A stretch of 64,000 nucleotides of DNA from a virus, in IMG/VR virus record IMGVR_UViG_3300030041_000010. One strand, 5' to 3'. Positions 2,534-63,777 of this stretch are shown here, one piece after another. Positions within the stretch are counted from its first letter, which is position 1. Each line of letters opens with the position of its first letter. The notes under the pieces were generated by a model, which was not told the origin of the DNA, ran no database searches, and was given only the letters and a program-made list of their open reading frames with translations. A program made the translations under genes and the position numbers.

Positions 2534-4840
2534 ATGGCGCAACTGGTTAACAACAACTCCGAGTATTACCGCGACCCGTTACACTCTCCGAGTGCTCCGA
2601 ACAACGCAGAAGAGGCATATCAAGCCTTTGCTGCCACTGTTCTGAGCGTGGACTGGGAGCGCGAAGTTGTTAGTCTAGTGGATTTAAGAACCAACTCGGT
2701 TCTAGTGGACGTAAACATCCTTCCTTGTGTTGCAAACTCGGGAGAGTCCACGGATGTAACCATGCCAGAAGAGGGCTCAACATACCTTTGCCTCCCAGTT
2801 CAGTACACCAAGGGATACATGCGGGTTGCACTCGTCACTCCAATCCTTACAGACACTGTACGCGCTAAGGATGCCATTGGTTATCGACTGCTGGATAAAA
2901 CCCCGGTGTACAACGTCCGTAAGAGGGGAAACTATCGGAAGGCATACCCCGGTCAGCAATCCGTATCTATGTCCTCAGGTTACACCGAAAAGAAGGACGG
3001 TGGTTGGGACAAGTCTTCACAGGATTTGAGCCGAGACTGGCTCAACATTCATCGTCGTCAATGGACGCAGATGACAGGACGACGAGTGACATACACAGAC
3101 TCAGGGTTGACCTTTCAAGGCTCTGTGAGCCGCCCTGACGCGGCGACAGTAACCCCGGTCACCCTCCCGGATGGTTCCAAGGAATCTGTCGTGTATCTCC
3201 AGCCCGGAGCCCAACCCAGCGACCGTGCGCTGAGTGGGAAGCAGGATGTAATACCCTTCACGGAAAACATGACCCGTGTGCAGGAATACGCTTTGGATTA
3301 CCCTCTACCTTCAGAGATACTCCAAACTGATTTACTGGATTTTGTTTTAGGCACGACGGCTGATCCATGGGCACGCACCTCCATTAAAACCACGGGTGGG
3401 ATTTCTTTTGATAGTGAATCCTACCTCGTCAGCCAAAGTTACGATCATCCGGTTTCCGGCACCCCCCTTGGGCCAACCCTTAATGAAGGAATCACCCCTC
3501 AACGTCGTGGGTTCATTGTTGAAAGCGCAACAGGCACCTTGGTGGGTTACAACCGCTTCGACAAAAGCACGTATGGTAATGTGCTCAAGCCGGTTCTCAC
3601 CCCCTACACCCAACTTGGACGTTTCGGTGCCGACGTTGAGTCAGGATATCTAACAGTTAATGCATCGACTGACCACGTGGAAGCTCGTCTCGCGGCTGCG
3701 GCTTTCGCTTTGAGATTCCCTTACGAACAGAATACCACCCGGTTCGATGTTACCAAGGAGGGCTTCACCTCCTTTGAAATCGGGGCTACGCTGCCCAAGG
3801 AGAACATCCCACTGGCTGGAGGATATGAGCACCCACATGGGGCTGGCCGGTCGCTGGAAGGGCATCTTGTGGGCTCCCTGAAGCTGATTGTAGGTAAGAA
3901 TCGAGATGAAGAAGACGCCATCGACCTTCAAGCTCTCGGTCAGACCATACTTCGCCTTGGAGCCGACGACACCTCGCTACCTAACCGGGGTCGAACTGTG
4001 ATGACTCAGACCCGCAGCAAAGGGGATGCGGTACAGAATAGGACACTTAATTATTGGTCGGCCCCTAAGTGTGGAATTGGAGATGCCGGAGTTTTGACCA
4101 ACAAGACAGGCATGGAGAACATTTCATTGCGTATGGGGTTGGACGGGGGACTCGTTGCTCGTGTGGGAGCCCGTGATCCTTCTGTGCTTCGTAAGCATTT
4201 GATAAATGGCTATCAGGACGGTCCGGGCAAGACCGCCTATCCGGCAACTAGTTCAAGCCGCATCGACTCACATTCACCCGGTCGTCCGGTATACGCCTCA
4301 GGAGATGCCACGTATCGGTTTAATGACCTTACACAGGTAGGCACTCCACAGATGCCAGAGATTGCAGGGTACTATGCGTGGAGTGGTAAACCTGTAACGA
4401 AGGCCGATGCAACTGGGCTTTCTGTGGACTTGCACGCGGTGCGAGATATTCTTTTGCGTGTCGGAGCCAACGCCGATGGTCAATCTCTATTGCTTGACTT
4501 TCTCGGAGGTATAGTAGCGGCTCTTGGAGCAGACACCTACGGTCGTTCCATTACAGCGGCTCTGGCCGGTGGTGCCGAGATAACCATTCAGCCCAACAAG
4601 CAGGGTAAGGCACTCCGTTTGGAAATTAACGGCGACATCGACATCACACATAAGGGGAACTTGCAGTATTTATGCACAGGGGATTTTATCACTGAATGCA
4701 CCACGTTGCGTCATATCACAAAGACTGATGAGGTCAGGTCGGCTCAAAAGATTATTCACTCAGCCTTGACGCGGTGTACGATTGAGGCCCCAGACATCGT
4801 TCACAATCAAGGACTCTATCAGTCAGACGAGGATAGCTAA
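2534..4840 (+). CDS. Putative baseplate central spike (gp5/Vgr-like) protein
   Basis: N-terminal OB-fold-like segment (ATVLSVDWEREVVSL..MPEEGS) and C-terminal beta-repeat-like region; follows the hub gene. Confidence 0.5.
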   Translation: MAQLVNNNSEYYRDPLHSPSAPNNAEEAYQAFAATVLSVDWEREVVSLVDLRTNSVLVDVNILPCVANSGESTDVTMPEEGSTYLCLPVQYTKGYMRVALVTPILTDTVRAKDAIGYRLLDKTPVYNVRKRGNYRKAYPGQQSVSMSSGYTEKKDGGWDKSSQDLSRDWLNIHRRQWTQMTGRRVTYTDSGLTFQGSVSRPDAATVTPVTLPDGSKESVVYLQPGAQPSDRALSGKQDVIPFTENMTRVQEYALDYPLPSEILQTDLLDFVLGTTADPWARTSIKTTGGISFDSESYLVSQSYDHPVSGTPLGPTLNEGITPQRRGFIVESATGTLVGYNRFDKSTYGNVLKPVLTPYTQLGRFGADVESGYLTVNASTDHVEARLAAAAFALRFPYEQNTTRFDVTKEGFTSFEIGATLPKENIPLAGGYEHPHGAGRSLEGHLVGSLKLIVGKNRDEEDAIDLQALGQTILRLGADDTSLPNRGRTVMTQTRSKGDAVQNRTLNYWSAPKCGIGDAGVLTNKTGMENISLRMGLDGGLVARVGARDPSVLRKHLINGYQDGPGKTAYPATSSSRIDSHSPGRPVYASGDATYRFNDLTQVGTPQMPEIAGYYAWSGKPVTKADATGLSVDLHAVRDILLRVGANADGQSLLLDFLGGIVAALGADTYGRSITAALAGGAEITIQPNKQGKALRLEINGDIDITHKGNLQYLCTGDFITECTTLRHITKTDEVRSAQKIIHSALTRCTIEAPDIVHNQGLYQSDEDS

Positions 4841-52831: not shown

Positions 52832-52861
52832 TTGACAAAGTTTTTCGAATACGGGTATTAT
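52832..52861 (+). promoter_or_regulatory. Sigma70-like promoter TTGACA-N18-TATTAT for the tmRNA gene
   Basis: Consensus -35 at 52832-52837; -10 at 52856-52861. Confidence 0.75.
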
Positions 52862-52867
52862 TTGTAC

Positions 52868-53229
52868 ATGGTTGTTTGTCCCGCAAGGGACTGAAGACGT
52901 TCTAAACGACATTCGGACGTGGGTCCGACTCCCACCACATCCACCAAGTTTGGTTTCATTGTTTCACCTTGGGTGTGTCACGGTTTCGACGGGTGTTCAG
53001 GCGGAAGCGGTCTACAACTCGTTTTAGTATACCTGTTCGTTCTCCGGGGAGCCGGAGAGGGTCAGCGATTCCACGCAATACGGTGGATGGCATGGCCTAT
53101 ACGGGAATGCAACAAAAATAAATGCGGAAACTCCTGCATACGCAATGGCTGCTTAATAACCAGCCCTGCCAAGGTTGACAGTTACCTTGTTCCCAGTCCT
53201 GTCTAGGGTGAGGCCGCGAAAGCGGCCTC
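52868..53229 (+). ncRNA. ssrA: Circularly permuted (two-piece) tmRNA; tag (A)AETPAYAMAA**
   Basis: Acceptor piece ends GAC GTGGG TCCGACT CCCAC CACATCC A CCA (to 52946); 24-nt spacer; coding piece starts GGGTGTG TCACGGTTTCGAC (52971) giving G3:U70; tag ORF 53124-53159 follows ATAAAT. Outer ends are approximate. Confidence 0.9.
53210..53229 (+). terminator. GC-rich hairpin probably marking the 3' end of the tmRNA coding piece
   Basis: GAGGCCGC-GAAA-GCGGCCTC; no U-tract. Confidence 0.4.
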
Positions 53230-53245
53230 TGCCGATTAGGAGTCT

Positions 53246-53488
53246 ATGTCTCGCAGAACTCACACAACCAGAACCCGTCTTAATAATTCACACTACCCTT
53301 CATTTCAAGTGCATTGGATTGAGGATGAGGACTATGGTGGCTGGACCGGCGTGGCTCAAATCTGGAGTGATGGCAATACTAAAGATGGCGGTGAGCACAA
53401 GATCTTCGTAAGCTTTTTTTCGATATCGGAGACTGCGTGTCTTTTCTCCACAATGGAGAGAGTCTCCAAGGTAGTGACACCGAGGTGA
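53246..53488 (+). CDS. Hypothetical protein
   Basis: AGGAG RBS. Confidence 0.55.
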   Translation: MSRRTHTTRTRLNNSHYPSFQVHWIEDEDYGGWTGVAQIWSDGNTKDGGEHKIFVSFFSISETACLFSTMERVSKVVTPR

Positions 53489-54559: not shown

Positions 54560-54928
54560 ATGACCTAGCTGAATGACCCCTACATCTATGTATTTGTTAG
54601 ACAAGATTTTCCCAAAGATAATCTTGCCCAACAGATAGTCCAATCCAACCACGCCACTTTCGAGATGGCAAAACGACTCACCGACTACAATGAAACACCT
54701 TCGGTTGTCCTCATCGGTATCCCCGACAAGTCATCCCTTGAAGCCGTAGCCGCTAGGCTCACGCGCTATGGTATCGCATTCGAGGCTTTTTATGAGCCTG
54801 ACTACGACCTTGGCCTCACCGCTATCGCCACATACCCCATCACTAATAAGAAGCAGCGTCGTGCTCTTGGTACGTACAAGCTTTGGTCTCCACAGGAATC
54901 AACTCTCCTGTTACAGGAGGCGGCATAA
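54560..54928 (+). CDS. Pth2-like peptidyl-tRNA hydrolase with in-frame TAG at codon 3
   Basis: AAGGAGGGG RBS then ATG ACC TAG CTG AAT GAC CCC TAC ATC..; YIYVFVRQD..QQIVQSNHA..FYEPD..LTAIA..YKLW. Confidence 0.7.
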
Positions 54929-58245: not shown

Positions 58246-58322
58246 GCCCCCGTAGCTCAACTGGTTAGAGTGACGGTCTCTAAAACCGGAGGTTGTGGGT
58301 TCGAGTCCCTCCGGGGGCACCA
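58246..58322 (+). tRNA. Amber suppressor tRNA (anticodon CTA), copy 1, Trp-like anticodon arm
   Basis: GCCCCCG TA GCTC..GAGT G ACGGT CTCTAAA ACCGG AGGTT GTGGG TTCGAGT CCCTC CGGGGGC A CCA. Confidence 0.85.
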
Positions 58323-58959: not shown

Positions 58960-59037
58960 GCGCCCGTAGCTCAGTTGGCTAGAGCGGGGGTCTCTAAAGC
59001 CCTGTCAGCGTGGGTTCAAGTCCCACCGGGCGCACCA
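58960..59037 (+). tRNA. Amber suppressor tRNA (anticodon CTA), copy 2
   Basis: GCGCCCG TA GCTC..GAGC G GGGGT CTCTAAA GCCCT GTCAGC GTGGG TTCAAGT CCCAC CGGGCGC A CCA. Confidence 0.85.
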
Positions 59038-59490: not shown

Positions 59491-59532
59491 ATTGAAAGTT
59501 TGTGTTTGAAAATCAACTTTCAATGGTATTAT
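59491..59532 (+). promoter_or_regulatory. Putative promoter (TTGAAA..TGGTATTAT) with 10-bp inverted repeat
   Basis: ATTGAAAGTT (59491-59500) / AACTTTCAAT (59515-59524); -10 TATTAT at 59527-59532; -35 spacing is non-optimal (15 nt). Confidence 0.5.
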
Positions 59533-59563
59533 GTAGACAGTGGTGGTTAAACACCGCTGAGAC

Positions 59564-59669
59564 CGGGGAGGTAGAGTAAAATCTACGTTCCCGACCATGC
59601 CGGGTTAGTGGGCAACTATTATCCCGGCTCCATCGGGGGGTTTGGTGAAATATCTGGGCTCCCCGACCA
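59564..59669 (+). ncRNA. Three tandem tRNA-minihelix-like hairpins, each ending NCCA
   Basis: 59564-59597 CGGGGAG..GTTCCCG ACCA; 59599-59632 GCCGGG..CCCGGC TCCA; 59634-59669 CGGGGGG..CTCCCCG ACCA. Confidence 0.6.
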
Positions 59670-59789
59670 AAAAGGCTAATCCCTAAGACTCGAAGTACCA
59701 GAAGTGGGAAACAGGGTTTATAAAGAGCAGGTTTACCTCCGGCCTAAGCATTAAGTTTCTTGAACATGTAACAAAGAAGGAAATCGTAC

Positions 59790-59876
59790 ATGCGTCTGAC
59801 GAGCCAAACACGAATTACTACCACAACGCAAACCAGCGGTGGCGGTATCGTAGTGTCTGGCACGGAATTCGACTAA
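59790..59876 (+). CDS. thrL-like leader peptide MRLTSQTRITTTTQTSGGGIVVSGTEFD
   Basis: AAGGA RBS 8 nt upstream; 8 Thr in 28 codons; run ATT ACT ACC ACA ACG CAA ACC. Confidence 0.85.
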   Translation: MRLTSQTRITTTTQTSGGGIVVSGTEFD

Positions 59877-59941
59877 AACAAGAGTCAAATCCAACTAGAC
59901 GCAAACGAGCCGCCCAACACCGGGGCGGCTTTAGTGTTTTT
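59803..59941 (+). promoter_or_regulatory. Ribosome-mediated transcription attenuator (1:2, 2:3 antiterminator, 3:4 terminator)
   Basis: 1:2 GCCAAACAC/GTGTCTGGC and TACTACCAC/GTGGCGGTA; 2:3 GGCGGT-TCGT-GTGTCTGG with CTAGACGC-ACGA-GCCGCC; 3:4 AGCCGCCC/GGGCGGCT followed by TTAGTGTTTTT. Confidence 0.8.
59907..59941 (+). terminator. Intrinsic terminator of the attenuator
   Basis: 8-bp GC-rich stem, 7-nt loop, interrupted U-tract. Confidence 0.7.
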
Positions 59942-59952
59942 GGGGGTAAATC

Positions 59953-60342
59953 ATGGCGAGTTTTGAAGAACATTGTCAGGACTGTTATAGGCTTTTATCT
60001 GACCGTTGCGAAAACGTGAACCGTTGGATGGACGATTGTTTCAAGCAGTTCGGTCCCTTGCACCGATTTGCCCGACATCACTGGCGTGGGGTTGATGAAG
60101 CGGAGCAGTTGTTTGGGGCTCTCGGTCGTAAGGCGGCGATAGTTCATATCCTGAAGGACTGTGGACAGGTGCCAAAGGCGAGGGAATGGGCAGACGGCCA
60201 GAGTGTTGACAGCCTCGGCATGAAGCCCGGTGGGAAGTTTAACGGTCACTGGGAGCCGGAGCAGTTCGATAAGGTCGCCTGTGGTCACGTGGGTTTGGAT
60301 AACCTGATGCTCAAGGCTCGTTATCAGGCGAGGGCATCGTGA
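59953..60342 (+). CDS. His-rich conserved hypothetical protein (DUF6915-like)
   Basis: H..C..WMD..HRFARHHWRGV..FG..HILKD pattern; first gene after the attenuator. Confidence 0.6.
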   Translation: MASFEEHCQDCYRLLSDRCENVNRWMDDCFKQFGPLHRFARHHWRGVDEAEQLFGALGRKAAIVHILKDCGQVPKAREWADGQSVDSLGMKPGGKFNGHWEPEQFDKVACGHVGLDNLMLKARYQARAS

Positions 60343-60599
60343 GTATCGAAGACATTATCAGTCAACTCCGGGCTGAAAGAAAAGATGTACGCGGAGATGG
60401 ATTTGGATACGCGGGGTCGTTAATCTCCGCGTACAAGAAAGCAATCACGGCTCTCGAAGAGTTGCAGGAGAAGTTGAAAGAGACTCCTCCACCAGCAGAG
60501 GTTGAGAGTTTGAAAGCGGCTAACCCTGATTGCTTTGGATTCGGCAGTGACAACACCGCCGAGTGTAAATGCCGCAAAGTTTTTGCGCCTTTCGCCTAG
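60339..60599 (+). CDS. Hypothetical protein
   Basis: GTGA coupling; 3' end overlaps a tRNA gene. Confidence 0.5.
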   Translation: MSIEDIISQLRAERKDVRGDGFGYAGSLISAYKKAITALEELQEKLKETPPPAEVESLKAANPDCFGFGSDNTAECKCRKVFAPFA

Positions 60600-60659
60600 C
60601 GGCTAGGGCCTCCGACCGATTATCGGATGACCAGAGTTCGAGTCTCTGAGGGCGCACCA
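60585..60659 (+). tRNA. Atypical tRNA-Ile(GAT) (loop CCGATTA: C33, U37)
   Basis: GCGCCTT..TCCGA CCGATTA TCGGA TGAC CAGAG TTCGAGT CTCTG AGGGCGC A CCA. Confidence 0.65.
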
Positions 60660-60664
60660 AGTTT

Positions 60665-60819
60665 GGGCTTGCTGTGGTCAGGCACGTAGGGAGAAAACCG
60701 GCACTCAGAGTCGGCAAGGTACGCGACCTTGCTTTATGTCTGAGATGGGAAACCGAAAGGTATTGCCCTTCAGGAAGACCTCATGCGTAGAGGCGGTTCA
60801 ACTCCGCCCAAGTCCATCA
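60665..60819 (+). ncRNA. ~155-nt tmRNA-TLD-like RNA with G3:U70 acceptor stem and no anticodon arm
   Basis: GGGCTTG/CAAGTCC A TCA; T arm GGCGG TTCAACT CCGCC; unpaired D-like loop CTGTGGTCAGGC; helix ACGTA/TGCGT; internal hairpins. Confidence 0.65.
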
Positions 60820-60828
60820 AGTGGGTAA

Positions 60829-60903
60829 GCCCGTATGGCTCAGTGGTAGCGCAGTCGCTTGATAAGCGAAAGGTCGTTGGTTCGATCCCAACTACGGGCA
60901 CCA
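60829..60903 (+). tRNA. tRNA-Ile(GAT)
   Basis: GCCCGTA..GTCGC TTGATAA GCGAA..GTTGG TTCGATC CCAAC TACGGGC A CCA. Confidence 0.9.
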
Positions 60904-61029
60904 AGTAAAATATGCGGCATGTCGTGAGTTTGTAGCTGGTAAGAATGCCGACATGTCGTGGGCTCAGAAGAAAGAGCCGAAGAAAAAGAAACACGCTTTG
61001 CCAAGTGGCGAGGCAACACAGGGTTGATT

Positions 61030-61129
61030 TTCCGTATGACTGAGGGTGGCGTAAACCACACTGTTGTCAGAACTCAAAATGGTTTTTACGGATCATGCGA
61101 GTTCGTAGGTTCGACTCCGACTACGGAAC
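61030..61129 (+). ncRNA. Atypical ~100-nt tRNA-like RNA
   Basis: TTCCGTA/TACGGAA acceptor; GTAGG TTCGACT CCGAC T arm; two extended arms (TGAC..GTCA; GAACTC..GAGTTC); no encoded CCA. Confidence 0.5.
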
Positions 61130-61140
61130 GAATTTGAAAT

Positions 61141-61223
61141 GCCACGGTGGCACAGCGGCGACTGCAACGGTTCCGTAAACCGTCACACCAACATCGGGGG
61201 TTCGAGTCCCTCCCGTGGCCCCA
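61141..61223 (+). tRNA. tRNA-Thr(CGT), C33 and 12-nt variable region
   Basis: GCCACGG..ACGGT TCCGTAA ACCGT..GGGGG TTCGAGT CCCTC CCGTGGC C CCA. Confidence 0.8.
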
Positions 61224-61227
61224 AGTT

Positions 61228-61530
61228 ATGAAGATGTACATCCTAATTCGCGAGGTGGTACCTGTGGGCAAGGCGGTACTAATCTCTGCACATGCCTCGC
61301 TGGCGTGCTACCTGAAGTTTAAGGAACGGCCTGAGATGCAGACATGGGTGAGTAGTCAATTCTTTAAGGTTGTATGTACTGTAACTGACGCAGAATTTGA
61401 ACGGGCAAAGACCGAGGCTGACAACGTGGTATTGACGGAATCCACGTTGGAAAATGTAGAGGTTGCTGTAGCTTTCTGTCCTCGGGAAGAATATCCGAAG
61501 ATGTTTAAGTTTTTGCGGTTGTGGAAATAG
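61228..61530 (+). CDS. Peptidyl-tRNA hydrolase, Pth2 family
   Basis: MKMYILIRE..GKAV..AHASL..W..F.KVVC.V..VAVAFCPR..F..LRLW. Confidence 0.8.
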   Translation: MKMYILIREVVPVGKAVLISAHASLACYLKFKERPEMQTWVSSQFFKVVCTVTDAEFERAKTEADNVVLTESTLENVEVAVAFCPREEYPKMFKFLRLWK

Positions 61531-61601
61531 GGGTGATGGCGACGGTAGTCTAGCTGCCTTTGAAGCAGTGAATGAGGGTTCGACTCCCTCCGCCCCTGCC
61601 A
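61529..61601 (+). tRNA. tRNA-Gln(TTG)
   Basis: AGGGGTG..GCTGC CTTTGAA GCAGT..GAGGG TTCGACT CCCTC CGCCCCT G CCA. Confidence 0.8.
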
Positions 61602-61614
61602 AGTTTAGGTTTAT

Positions 61615-61691
61615 GCCAACGTAGCTCAGATGGTCAGAGCGGCAGTTTTGTAAACTGCGGGTCGGGGGTTCGATGCCCTCCGTTGGCTCCA
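61615..61691 (+). tRNA. tRNA-Thr(TGT)
   Basis: GCCAACG..GCAGT TTTGTAA ACTGC..CGTTGGC T CCA. Confidence 0.9.
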
Positions 61692-61704
61692 GTTTAGTTG
61701 TTTT

Positions 61705-61780
61705 GCAGATGTAGCATAGCGGTCAATGCGCCTCCCTTGTAACGAGGACGCCGTCAGTTCGAATCTGACCATCTGCTCCA
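61705..61780 (+). tRNA. tRNA-Thr(TGT), second divergent copy
   Basis: GCAGATG..CCTCC CTTGTAA CGAGG..GTCAG TTCGAAT CTGAC CATCTGC T CCA. Confidence 0.85.
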
Positions 61781-61794
61781 GTTTGAGGTACGAT

Positions 61795-61932
61795 ATGAGA
61801 GTTATCAGCATCGCGTTGTACCGATTTGCTCAGGCGCTGTCTTACGTTCTACCTGAGTCGATATGGGAACCAGTGACCTATCCAATCGACCGATTGCGTT
61901 GGTGGTTCGAAAAACATGCACCTGTCGTCTAG
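61795..61932 (+). CDS. Small hypothetical protein
   Basis: GAGGT RBS; 3' end overlaps a tRNA. Confidence 0.4.
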   Translation: MRVISIALYRFAQALSYVLPESIWEPVTYPIDRLRWWFEKHAPVV

Positions 61933-61993
61933 TGGCTCAGGACTCCTCCTTGGTATGGAGGGTACAGGGGTTCAAATCCCCTCGGGTGCTCCA
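61918..61993 (+). tRNA. tRNA-Thr(GGT) with Glu/Asp-like D arm
   Basis: GCACCTG TC GTCTAGTGGCTCAGGAC T CCTCC TTGGTAT GGAGG..AGGGG TTCAAAT CCCCT CGGGTGC T CCA. Confidence 0.85.
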
Positions 61994-62014
61994 ATTTTAT
62001 GGTATTGTTCTTCT

Positions 62015-62233
62015 ATGAGTACATTGACGTGGGAAGAACGAAACCAGCGGATTAAAAAGGAACAGCTTACTGAAGAAGAGTTGGGGACTTTAGTAGGCTG
62101 TGCTGTAACCGGAGTGCGGAGATTCTGGGGTCATGGAGCAGAGTATGAAATCCGCTTCGATGATGGTCGAACGCTCTACATTACCAAGAGCGACTACACC
62201 AACGATGTAGTTTGCATGTTCAAAGAGTTTTAA
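62015..62233 (+). CDS. Hypothetical protein
   Basis: 72-aa ORF; possibly leaderless behind a TATTGT -10. Confidence 0.55.
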   Translation: MSTLTWEERNQRIKKEQLTEEELGTLVGCAVTGVRRFWGHGAEYEIRFDDGRTLYITKSDYTNDVVCMFKEF

Positions 62234-62296
62234 GCTACGAGTCGTGGCTCCAGTTTCCGTATTAGTGAGTATTAGTGAGTACGAGGTACTGACTAA

Positions 62297-62488
62297 ATGG
62301 GTAAGAAAGTTGAAAAGGGGTTGTGTTGGGAGTTGGATGATTCGGAGTGTGATATCAACGCCCCCTCACCGCATTTCACGGATGACAGTAGCGAACGTGA
62401 GAACGACTATCTGTACGGGACGTTTCCCGTGCTGATTCCTAAGAGGCCACCTTCAAGGTTGCAACCTCCGAAGGAACCAAAAGAGTAA
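62297..62488 (+). CDS. Hypothetical protein
   Basis: GAGG RBS; 63 aa. Confidence 0.45.
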   Translation: MGKKVEKGLCWELDDSECDINAPSPHFTDDSSERENDYLYGTFPVLIPKRPPSRLQPPKEPKE

Positions 62489-62877
62489 ATCGCGCAATAT
62501 AAGTGGCGCGATTCAGGTTTTAATTGCGTGATTCGGAATCGCGCCATAACGCCGCTTGTGGCAAGCAAGCCACTTGGGTTCGTCACACGCAGTTTGCCGG
62601 TACTCATCCTTTCTGCACTGAGTGTGCAAAGAAGGAAGATGATTTTGGTGAAGAGTCCAGCTATGTGGTTTGGGAGGAGCTTTTACATGAAGTTGCTCAG
62701 TAGTTGGTTCTTCTTCGTGCCTCCATTCACGATCCTGCCTCGGTGGAAGTTGGCAGTTATGCGTCAGTGGCTGTGGAGGTATCAGAGGTATACACAGCCG
62801 GGAGTTCGTGGATGTCCTATGAATGGGGATGCTTTCGGTTGTATCGGATTTTGGATGAGGAAGCTTGTCAATTTTAG

Positions 62878-62953
62878 GCCGGAGTAGCTCAGTTGTTAGA
62901 GCGCCGTCTTGGTAAGACGGAGGTCACGGGTTAGAACCCCGTCTCTGGCTCCA
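62878..62953 (+). tRNA. tRNA-Thr(GGT), second copy, non-canonical D and T loops
   Basis: GCCGGAG..CCGTC TTGGTAA GACGG..ACGGG TTAGAAC CCCGT CTCTGGC T CCA. Confidence 0.8.
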
Positions 62954-63180
62954 AATCTTGAAAGGGGATTCCATTGAAGCCTCCTCTTGGTTCAATTCTG
63001 AACTAAAGCCATCAATATCACGGCTTACTGTATCCAAATCAGACCCGCTAATTAAAGCAGTATACCAACGGATATGTCTGTACATTAGTTCGGGGTTTAA
63101 GAGTGTCCGATGGACGCGCAGTTGTTGAAAAATAACTGGGCTTTGGTGAAAGCACGATTTGTAGCTGAAGGGTTTTGTTA

Positions 63181-63777
63181 ATGGAACAGTATCCGAGTAT
63201 CGAAGGCAGTTCAAAGGCCCCCCTTGGTGAGGCGGGTCTTGCCTTCTACAAGTATGACGGCTCGAACCTCAGGTGGGAGTGGAACCCCAAGAAGGGGTGG
63301 TTCAAGTTTGGCACCCGCACCCAACTGTTCGATAAGTCGGAGCCGTTATTTGGTCAGGCCATTCCCCTTTTTATGCAGATGGGCGATGAGATTGTCCATC
63401 GTGTGAAAAGTGTTGAACGACAACCGCAACGCATTACAGCTTACACGGAATTCTTCGGCGAGAGCAGTTTCGCCGGGAGCCATATTCTGGAAGAGCCGAA
63501 GCAACTCAAGTTGTTCGATGTGTACTTGTTCAAGAAGGGGTTAATGAAGCCCCGACAGTTTGTGAAGACCTTTGGTGGTTTGCCTTATGTAGCGGAAGTG
63601 GTTTACGATGGCAACATCAACCAATCATTTGTTCAGGGGGTCCGGGCTGGAGAGTATCCAGTTTGGGAGGGGGTCGTCTGCAAGGGCGACAACTTCATGT
63701 TCAAGGTGAAGACCGATGCCTACTTGAGGAAGCTGCGGCAGGTATACCCGCAGCGATGGAATCAGTTTTGGGAGTGA
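63181..63777 (+). CDS. RNA ligase (Rnl2-like adenylation domain)
   Basis: Nucleotidyltransferase motifs KYDGSN, EFFG, LFDV, EGVV, FKVK. Confidence 0.8.
   Translation: MEQYPSIEGSSKAPLGEAGLAFYKYDGSNLRWEWNPKKGWFKFGTRTQLFDKSEPLFGQAIPLFMQMGDEIVHRVKSVERQPQRITAYTEFFGESSFAGSHILEEPKQLKLFDVYLFKKGLMKPRQFVKTFGGLPYVAEVVYDGNINQSFVQGVRAGEYPVWEGVVCKGDNFMFKVKTDAYLRKLRQVYPQRWNQFWE

Follow-up and report, generated by a model that had tools for sequence, protein, structure and literature searches.

The 64,000-nucleotide stretch of viral DNA analysed here (the window) carries a tandem array of three short hairpins, each ending in a free NCCA like the acceptor end of a tRNA. This array is a real and conserved class of phage small-RNA gene array, structured and under selection, and apparently undescribed. 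With a probability of roughly 45%, its units would be released by RNase P and act as decoys for host anti-phage enzymes whose recognition depends on the CCA and on the outermost pairs of the acceptor stem. The window comes from a large tailed phage (with baseplate and tail domains, and relatives of up to 463 kb), and its sequence is present in 22 DNA runs labelled as peat metagenome, of which three are possible sources. The array and its surroundings are laid out as follows.

59505..59532, + strand: putative sigma70-type promoter (-35-like TTGAAA, extended -10 TG-n-TATTAT)
59538..59559, + strand: 5' hairpin of 22 nt lacking a CCA, preceding unit 1
59564..59597, + strand: unit 1, 34 nt, 12 pair positions with one G-G mismatch, 6-nt loop, A-CCA, Pro-type end
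59599..59632, + strand: unit 2, 34 nt, 13 pair positions with one U-U mismatch, GCAA tetraloop, U-CCA, Thr-type end
59634..59669, + strand: unit 3, 36 nt, 12 bp, 8-nt loop, A-CCA, Pro-type end
59670..59773, + strand: A/U-rich trailer and an insert of ~70 nt absent from relatives
59790..59876, + strand: leader peptide of 28 codons, Thr-rich with Ile and Gln codons (Shine-Dalgarno-like site at 59774-59783)
59841..59941, + strand: predicted antiterminator, overlapping the intrinsic terminator (59907-59931) and its U-tract
59953..60342, + strand: DUF6915 protein, the first gene past the terminator
60585..62953, + strand: tRNA block with Ile(GAT) x2, Thr x5 (CGT, TGT, TGT, GGT, GGT) and Gln(TTG)
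61228..61530, + strand: peptidyl-tRNA hydrolase 2-like gene within the tRNA block (Pfam PTH2, E 9.6e-6)
63175..63777, + strand: RNA-ligase-like gene (PHROG 548, E 1.6e-7; the protein has no Pfam or PDB match)

An earlier note, made from the letters of this DNA, had reported the coordinates of the array, lengths of 34, 34 and 36 nt, single-T spacers and ACCA, TCCA and ACCA ends, all of which were reproduced. On folding, every unit forms a single hairpin of 12-13 pair positions (z = -4.8, -4.1 and -2.9 for units 1, 2 and 3), while the whole array reaches z = -6.1. Lone hairpins followed by NCCA are frequent by chance (26 in the window against a mean of 15.1 in shuffles, by a structure-only detector); the same detector finds 59564-59669 as the sole tandem array of the window, and 460 dinucleotide shuffles of the window yielded no triples and three doubles. 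The loops (GTAAAA, GCAA and TGAAATAT in units 1 to 3) include no T-loop, that of unit 1 belonging to the class of L014 unit 2 and L039 unit 2. The designation "acceptor-T minihelix" given in the earlier note therefore stands for size, with 12-14 pair positions against the ~12 stacked pairs expected above NCCA, and falls for the loop, where the 7-nt T-loop (UUCRAAU) is lacking and mostly GNRA tetraloops or 6-nt loops are found. Compared with tRNA (RF00005), the acceptor stem, discriminator and 3' CCA are present in 24/24 units of the comparison set described below; the cloverleaf with D, anticodon and T arms is lacking, the units being single hairpins. Neither ARAGORN nor Rfam (E up to 10) gave a match over the array. 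The 5' hairpin at 59538-59559 is possibly a decayed unit, and relatives have their first unit at this place. A CsrB/RsmZ-type sponge was considered and rejected (no exposed GGA, loops varying among GAAA, GCAA and GAGA, the G run paired within the stem), as was an alanine-accepting minihelix (G3-U70 in 0/24 units).

Relatives were gathered through a search with the ligase-like protein (10 loci) and through a pattern for the leader, which matched 7 times in viral and 27 times in metagenome sequences, 20 of these 34 matches being unrelated. An array of at least two units is present at all 18 loci with the true downstream leader motif. Five distinct arrays were recovered besides that of the window, namely L013 (5 units), L014 (4), L039 (4), L040 (3, with an additional truncated last unit) and L046 (5), and units have been gained and lost among them. 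The resulting set of 24 units, from which the truncated unit, incomplete or identical copies and L052 (a single base away from L046) were excluded, has the CCA end in 24/24 and a length of 34 nt in 20/24, with the discriminator base being A in 13, G in six and U in five. Mismatches are absent at pairs 1-5, begin at pair 6 and run inward (2-5 each at pairs 6-9). In the 17 gap-free units, which mix orthologues with paralogues and from which the structure itself was drawn, 93.2% of cells are paired and double-sided changes occur at 11 of 13 pairs; none of 500 shuffles reaches the observed pairing and slid controls remain at or below 57%. The earlier note had named covariation in related phages as a check, and a lack of discrete RNAs together with unconserved stems or NCCA ends as evidence against its reading; as the stems covary and the CCA is invariant, the reading is not refuted on these grounds. 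The spacer is 1 nt at 17/18 junctions, with T or A at position -1 in 17/18. The units also have an inner helix in common, mostly GNRA-capped and unlike any T-arm, which matches the 3' halves of 317 tRNAs in words of at most 7-9 nt.

The array-bearing records have a baseplate-like protein 84% (G002) and 64% (G003) identical to that of the window, whereas G001, G004 and G005 (49-54%) have the promoter, leader and terminator alike but no array. A covariance model (R1) found arrays in G002, G003 and G009 and none in G001, G004-G008 and G010, some of which are fragments; units 1 and 3 of the window receive only weak scores from it (E 1.2 and 0.12), their classes being absent from its training set. 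Wider searches returned no further arrays: a 17-base junction pattern matched 11 viral sequences, all lacking both array and tRNA; a two-unit pattern had two viral matches (one known array and one unrelated repeat) and 17 in bacterial and archaeal genomes, none of them an array, this narrow pattern covering close variants only; and a distant blastn of the region against 50,697 records of cultured phages produced 44 short matches, none covering 80% (best listed E 0.05).

The setting of the array is that of a regulated tRNA operon. The putative promoter, at which TATTATGTA is invariant in 6/6 aligned loci, is proposed from this conservation, a consensus promoter scan having made no call at 59505-59532. 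All four Thr codons of the leader peptide, together with ATT and CAA, are kept in 7/7 loci and match the downstream anticodons, and an alternative fold sequestering the 5' arm of the terminator is likewise predicted in 7/7 loci. The layout of a leader-peptide attenuator (matching control codons, mutually exclusive antiterminator and terminator) is thus present by sequence and folding in 7/7 loci, and attenuation of the tRNA operon by the leader peptide is likely. The placement of the hairpins upstream of the attenuator, claimed in the earlier note, was borne out: the conserved array precedes the terminator, as is directly visible in the sequence, and would therefore be made whether or not the terminator fires. 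Between array and leader, the insert (~70 nt, at 59674-59745) is absent from five relatives and folds weakly.

Similar leaders recur in these phages. In G003, the other two tRNA blocks are likewise preceded by leader peptides rich in their own amino acids, and, overall, tRNA blocks follow a leader peptide in the amino acids of the block (T/I/Q; V/A/G/E/D/C; L/Y) and then a terminator. Leader peptides with terminators before phage tRNA operons are likely to be ribosome-stalling attenuators. Such blocks were located at the following places.

Window 59790-59931: leader and terminator before a tRNA block
L083:3570-3740: leader and terminator before a tRNA block
L085:7824-7960: leader and terminator before a tRNA block
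L092:7654: leader and terminator before a tRNA block
G001, G004 and G005: leaders and terminators of Thr/Ile/Gln operons

The acceptor ends of the units resemble those of particular tRNAs. Units 1 and 3 carry C1-G72/G2-C71/G3-C70/A73, a signature found in 9/148 phage tRNAs, all of them Pro, which confirms the Pro-like ends claimed for two of the hairpins. Unit 2 carries G1-C72/C2-G71/C3-G70/U73, found again in 9/148 and exclusively in Thr; its proposed likeness to several tRNA-Thr of the window holds for the signature as such, the exact end being present in only two of the five, while a third has C73. Compared with the same 148 phage tRNAs, the other unit classes have ends of the Ile/Phe/Tyr/Leu type, the end of a single phage tRNA-Gln, or no counterpart. 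In each of the five related arrays, the number of distinct end signatures equals the number of units, whereas the window has two in three units. A Thr-type GCCGG/CCGGC unit is present in 5/6 arrays (L040 lacks it), identical at pairs 1-5 and divergent at pairs 6-9. Pair identity within a class is 0.90-0.92 at pairs 1-2 and declines inward, reaching 0.21 at pair 8, a gradient that is partly circular as the orthology classes were set by eye and partly on the ends.

For expression, a 281-nt contig from RNA run X23 covers 59566-59845 at a depth of 157 (with one extra A), against depths of 2.4-12.3 for the seven other phage contigs above 20 kb among those listed. This is a weak hint that the array region is expressed, X23 and a second RNA run (X24) having been located using this stretch, the library being PCR-amplified, and contigs giving no RNA ends, strand or level. 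As it runs through the whole array into the leader, the contig represents uncut RNA or DNA; 34-mers would not assemble, and no processed unit was seen among the contigs. X24 gave low-depth flanking contigs and none over the array, contigs indicating presence and not absence. The layout of a bacterial RNase P substrate (a stem with a 5' leader, unpaired NCCA and a favourable -1 base) is present, and the close relatives G002 and G003 encode an RNase P RNA. In the available text of two studies, E. coli RNase P RNA cleaves synthetic NCCA hairpins at +1, those with a GAAA cap among them (PMC3035440; PMC11143913). By analogy with these hairpins, and given the RNase P RNA of G002 and G003, the units are likely to be released as free RNAs by RNase P.

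Taken as decoys, the units would act in the following manner. The array would be transcribed upstream of the attenuator, RNase P would cut each unit at +1, and 3' trimming would then leave free RNAs of 34-36 nt; these may divert toxins that attack tRNA ends and so protect translation. The decoys would form a standing first line of defence, with the attenuated tRNA-Ile/Thr/Gln genes, the Pth2 and the ligase-like gene serving as back-up once charged tRNA becomes scarce. Precedent for the target exists: according to the available portion of one report, FaRel2 pyrophosphorylates the CCA after reading pairs 1, 2, 4 and 5 and efficiently modifies a synthetic Gly1 minihelix, while other toxSAS read other stems and GNAT toxins use the same two-part recognition (10.1101/2024.07.05.602228). 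The FaRel2 determinants (G1-C72, C2-G71, G4-C69, purine5-pyrimidine68 and CCA) are present in 5/24 units, namely unit 2 and four orthologues, and absent from window units 1 and 3. Since 7/15 phage tRNA-Thr and 8/10 tRNA-Gly have them too, the match is not specific, and any Thr- or Gly-like end suffices. A panel of differing ends placed before a starvation switch would look like a decoy against a variable family of end-readers, and the context (back-up tRNAs, Pth2, ligase-like gene and tmRNA) speaks for it. Peptidyl-tRNA hydrolase counteracts the GNAT toxin TacT, as stated in the accessible part of PMC4942678; by analogy, the Pth2 of the operon would fit a role against GNAT toxins, though Pth has general roles. 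As the toxins are catalytic, a decoy would need tRNA-like concentrations.

A further regularity concerns pair 10, which is G-U or U-G in 21 of the 24 units, A-U in two and a mismatch in one, with G-C in none. Mapped from hairpin to T-stem, an inferred correspondence, it is equivalent to tRNA pair 51-63, which in 283 phage tRNAs is G-C in 172 and G-U in six; the 24 units share ancestry and are not independent. G-U-type pairs at 51-63 weaken EF-Tu binding by 0.8-1.1 kcal/mol (PMC3239215, in its available text), and the units are accordingly predicted from pair 10 to be weak EF-Tu binders. Such avoidance suggests that the units can be charged. For decoys, the weak pairs would keep charged units off the ribosome and exposed to toxins that acetylate aminoacyl-tRNA.

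Distant relatives without the array encode other CCA-ended RNAs which are unable to decode, located in a neighbouring tmRNA/Lys/CUA cluster at 1-3 nt from their neighbours. These comprise full tRNA shapes with a 4-nt loop replacing the anticodon, two-arm forms of 46-51 nt and single hairpins (minihelices) of 32-35 nt. They are listed below together with one from the array-bearing G003.

G004 26335-25932, - strand: RNAs of the anticodon-less, two-arm and minihelix series
G001 239667-238823, - strand: RNAs of the same series
G005 192026-192135, + strand: RNAs of the same series
G003 62413-62341, - strand: RNA of the same series

At pair 10, G-U is found in both of the single hairpins, and the four anticodon-less tRNAs of the cluster have G50-U64. 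A predicted EF-Tu penalty of at least 1.8 kcal/mol applies to 7/12 scoreable mimics (of 14) against 11/274 tRNAs, the 14 having been hand-picked from lists in which chance hairpins and tRNAs overlooked by ARAGORN occur as well; two of the 14, the G003 anticodon-less tRNA and a 155-nt RNA of the window, have no penalty. The presence of such RNAs in several sizes implies that the lineage keeps acceptor ends and discards decoding. Tentatively, and a little less probably than the decoy role itself, the arrays may represent a new class of counter-defence gene: a tandem library of minihelices with differing acceptor identities and an EF-Tu-avoiding wobble, released by RNase P as toxin decoys and forming the smallest member of a series of mimics (anticodon-less tRNA, two-arm, hairpin) maintained in a single jumbo-phage lineage. 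The 155-nt RNA (window 60665-60819, +) has a 7-bp acceptor stem with G3-U70 and A73 (alanine marks), a canonical T-arm and a large insert, ends in ATCA and not ACCA, and has an overall fold z of only -0.9; comparable long RNAs with a T-arm are present in G001 and G005, where they end in ACCA.

Avoiding EF-Tu is of consequence only to RNAs that are charged and hence fits an alternative as well, namely that the units are aminoacylated carriers which, protected from EF-Tu, supply or store amino acids for uses other than translation, and are charged by host synthetases or by a phage synthetase core without an anticodon domain. The EF-Tu-weak pairs in array units and larger mimics make most sense if these RNAs are charged, the ends correspond to those of Thr and Pro tRNAs, of a single phage Gln tRNA and of tRNAs of the Ile/Phe type, and G003 and G001 encode a 235-aa GlyRS-like core lacking the anticodon-binding domain. 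However, this gene adjoins tRNA-Gly, far from the array, and is also present in the array-less G001; no acceptor enzyme adjoins the array, and none of the 24 units has G3-U70. The Pro, Thr and Ile synthetases (ProRS, ThrRS and IleRS) depend on the anticodon, which also counts against charging. Carriers are considered unlikely, though the most probable alternative to decoys.

Less probable again is that the hairpins are marks for processing or stability only, attracting RNase P or shielding the 5' end of the leader mRNA, with the released pieces being waste. The layout is like the punctuation of transcripts by tRNA genes, given the 1-nt spacers and the T or A at -1, and the sole RNA evidence is for uncut RNA. 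Nevertheless, no tRNA follows the array, a single mark would suffice whereas 3-5 units with different ends are found, and in G001, G004 and G005 an identical arrangement of leader and terminator does without an array. The position-specific G-U and the full-length anticodon-less tRNAs of array-less phages would be left unexplained as well.

Rather improbable, and slightly more so than mere marks, is a sponge for host proteins that read uncharged tRNA ends (Rel/RelA, synthetases or the CCA-adding enzyme), which might for instance damp the stringent response in a starved host. Rel binds the CCA end of uncharged tRNA, and such a role would suit CCA ends that have neither amino acid nor anticodon and that precede an attenuator sensing starvation; a reader of the CCA only, however, would need no set of conserved acceptor identities. 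Finally, that the hairpins are functionless, collapsed relics of tRNA genes, an option raised in the earlier note, is very improbable: the ends do resemble tRNA ends, relatives have RNAs of graded size between the full tRNA shape and the hairpin, and units are gained and lost (as in the truncated last unit of L040), but the uniform length, the invariant CCA, the paired and doubly changed stem positions and an inner helix of their own, GNRA-capped and with neither a T-loop nor more than short words of tRNA, all speak against decay.

Returning to the units as RNase P-released decoys, their architecture has close counterparts among laboratory RNAs. Synthetic minihelices and RNase P substrates (pATSer, pATSer-GAAA and pMini3bp; PMC3035440, PMC11143913) and the FaRel2 Gly1 minihelix (10.1101/2024.07.05.602228) are, in the available text of these sources, 12-13-bp hairpins with discriminator and CCA as in the units; a GNRA cap is tolerated and U at -1 is common in both. 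The array units differ in being encoded in a genome, in tandem, conserved and with a different acceptor end per unit. Minihelices have been known as laboratory models and as the hypothetical ancestor of tRNA, and a conserved array encoded in a genome would provide a natural example whose job is to be found. The logic of the operon is like that of phage back-up tRNAs, such as the spare tRNAs by which T5 protects translation against Retron and PARIS (10.1101/2024.07.05.602228), and of repair enzymes such as the T4 Pnk/ligase pair (PMC4810235), as far as the accessible text of both goes. In contrast to back-up tRNAs, the units cannot decode and would divert the attacker instead of replacing the victim. 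Borrowing of tRNA-processing enzymes or of a CCA end by viral RNAs is described, in the sections available, for M3 RNA and C4 antisense RNA (phage non-tRNA substrates of RNase P; PMC11143913) and for plant-virus tRNA-like structures (PMC4810235); these are single larger RNAs or genome ends, whereas the array consists of promoter-proximal 34-nt acceptor mimics.

Staphylococcal tRNA-Gly and tRNA-Sec are examples of non-proteinogenic tRNAs that carry EF-Tu antideterminants, with weak T-stem pairs comparable to those of the units, which unlike them have no anticodon, D-arm or T-loop. RNA anti-CRISPRs are phage RNA mimics that soak up a defence protein; for the array, the target would be a reader of tRNA ends and not a Cas protein. 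A literature search on natural phage minihelices, tRNA decoys and mimics, RNA sponges, anticodon-less tRNAs and phage tRNA attenuators, covering mostly open papers, found nothing that describes the array. The "anticodon-less" tRNA of PMC13434031 is a nuclease product, and PMC4810235 treats viral tRNA-like structures only, in the available text of each. Should the decoy role hold, the array would represent an RNA-based strategy against tRNA-targeting immunity, beyond spare tRNAs and repair enzymes, and the conserved ends would predict the acceptor stems read by host toxins; should the units be charged instead, they would point to non-ribosomal amino-acid chemistry in phage infection.

Other RNA features were observed in the window and its relatives. 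The GlyRS-like gene encodes a class II catalytic core and lies beside tRNA-Gly at L083:8787-9494 (G003) and at 304526-305212 in G001. A phage class A RNase P RNA with shortened peripheral helices is located within the Val/Gly/Ala tRNA block (L083:4407-4729 and L092:8714-9042), and a promoter-led, G+C-rich non-coding region of ~210 nt with no Rfam match (L083 ~3300-3510, G003) lies upstream of the promoter of the Val/Ala/Gly leader. Inside the tRNA block of the window, an intergenic inverted repeat (62490-62550) has one arm followed by CCA. Two tRNAs with a CUA anticodon (58246-58322 and 58960-59037) are kept in relatives, in the company of a tmRNA of permuted type (52854-53247 in the window) and of another Pth2-like ORF (54665-54928). 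These CUA tRNAs do not point to recoding, as TAG ends 6/24 long ORFs of the window.
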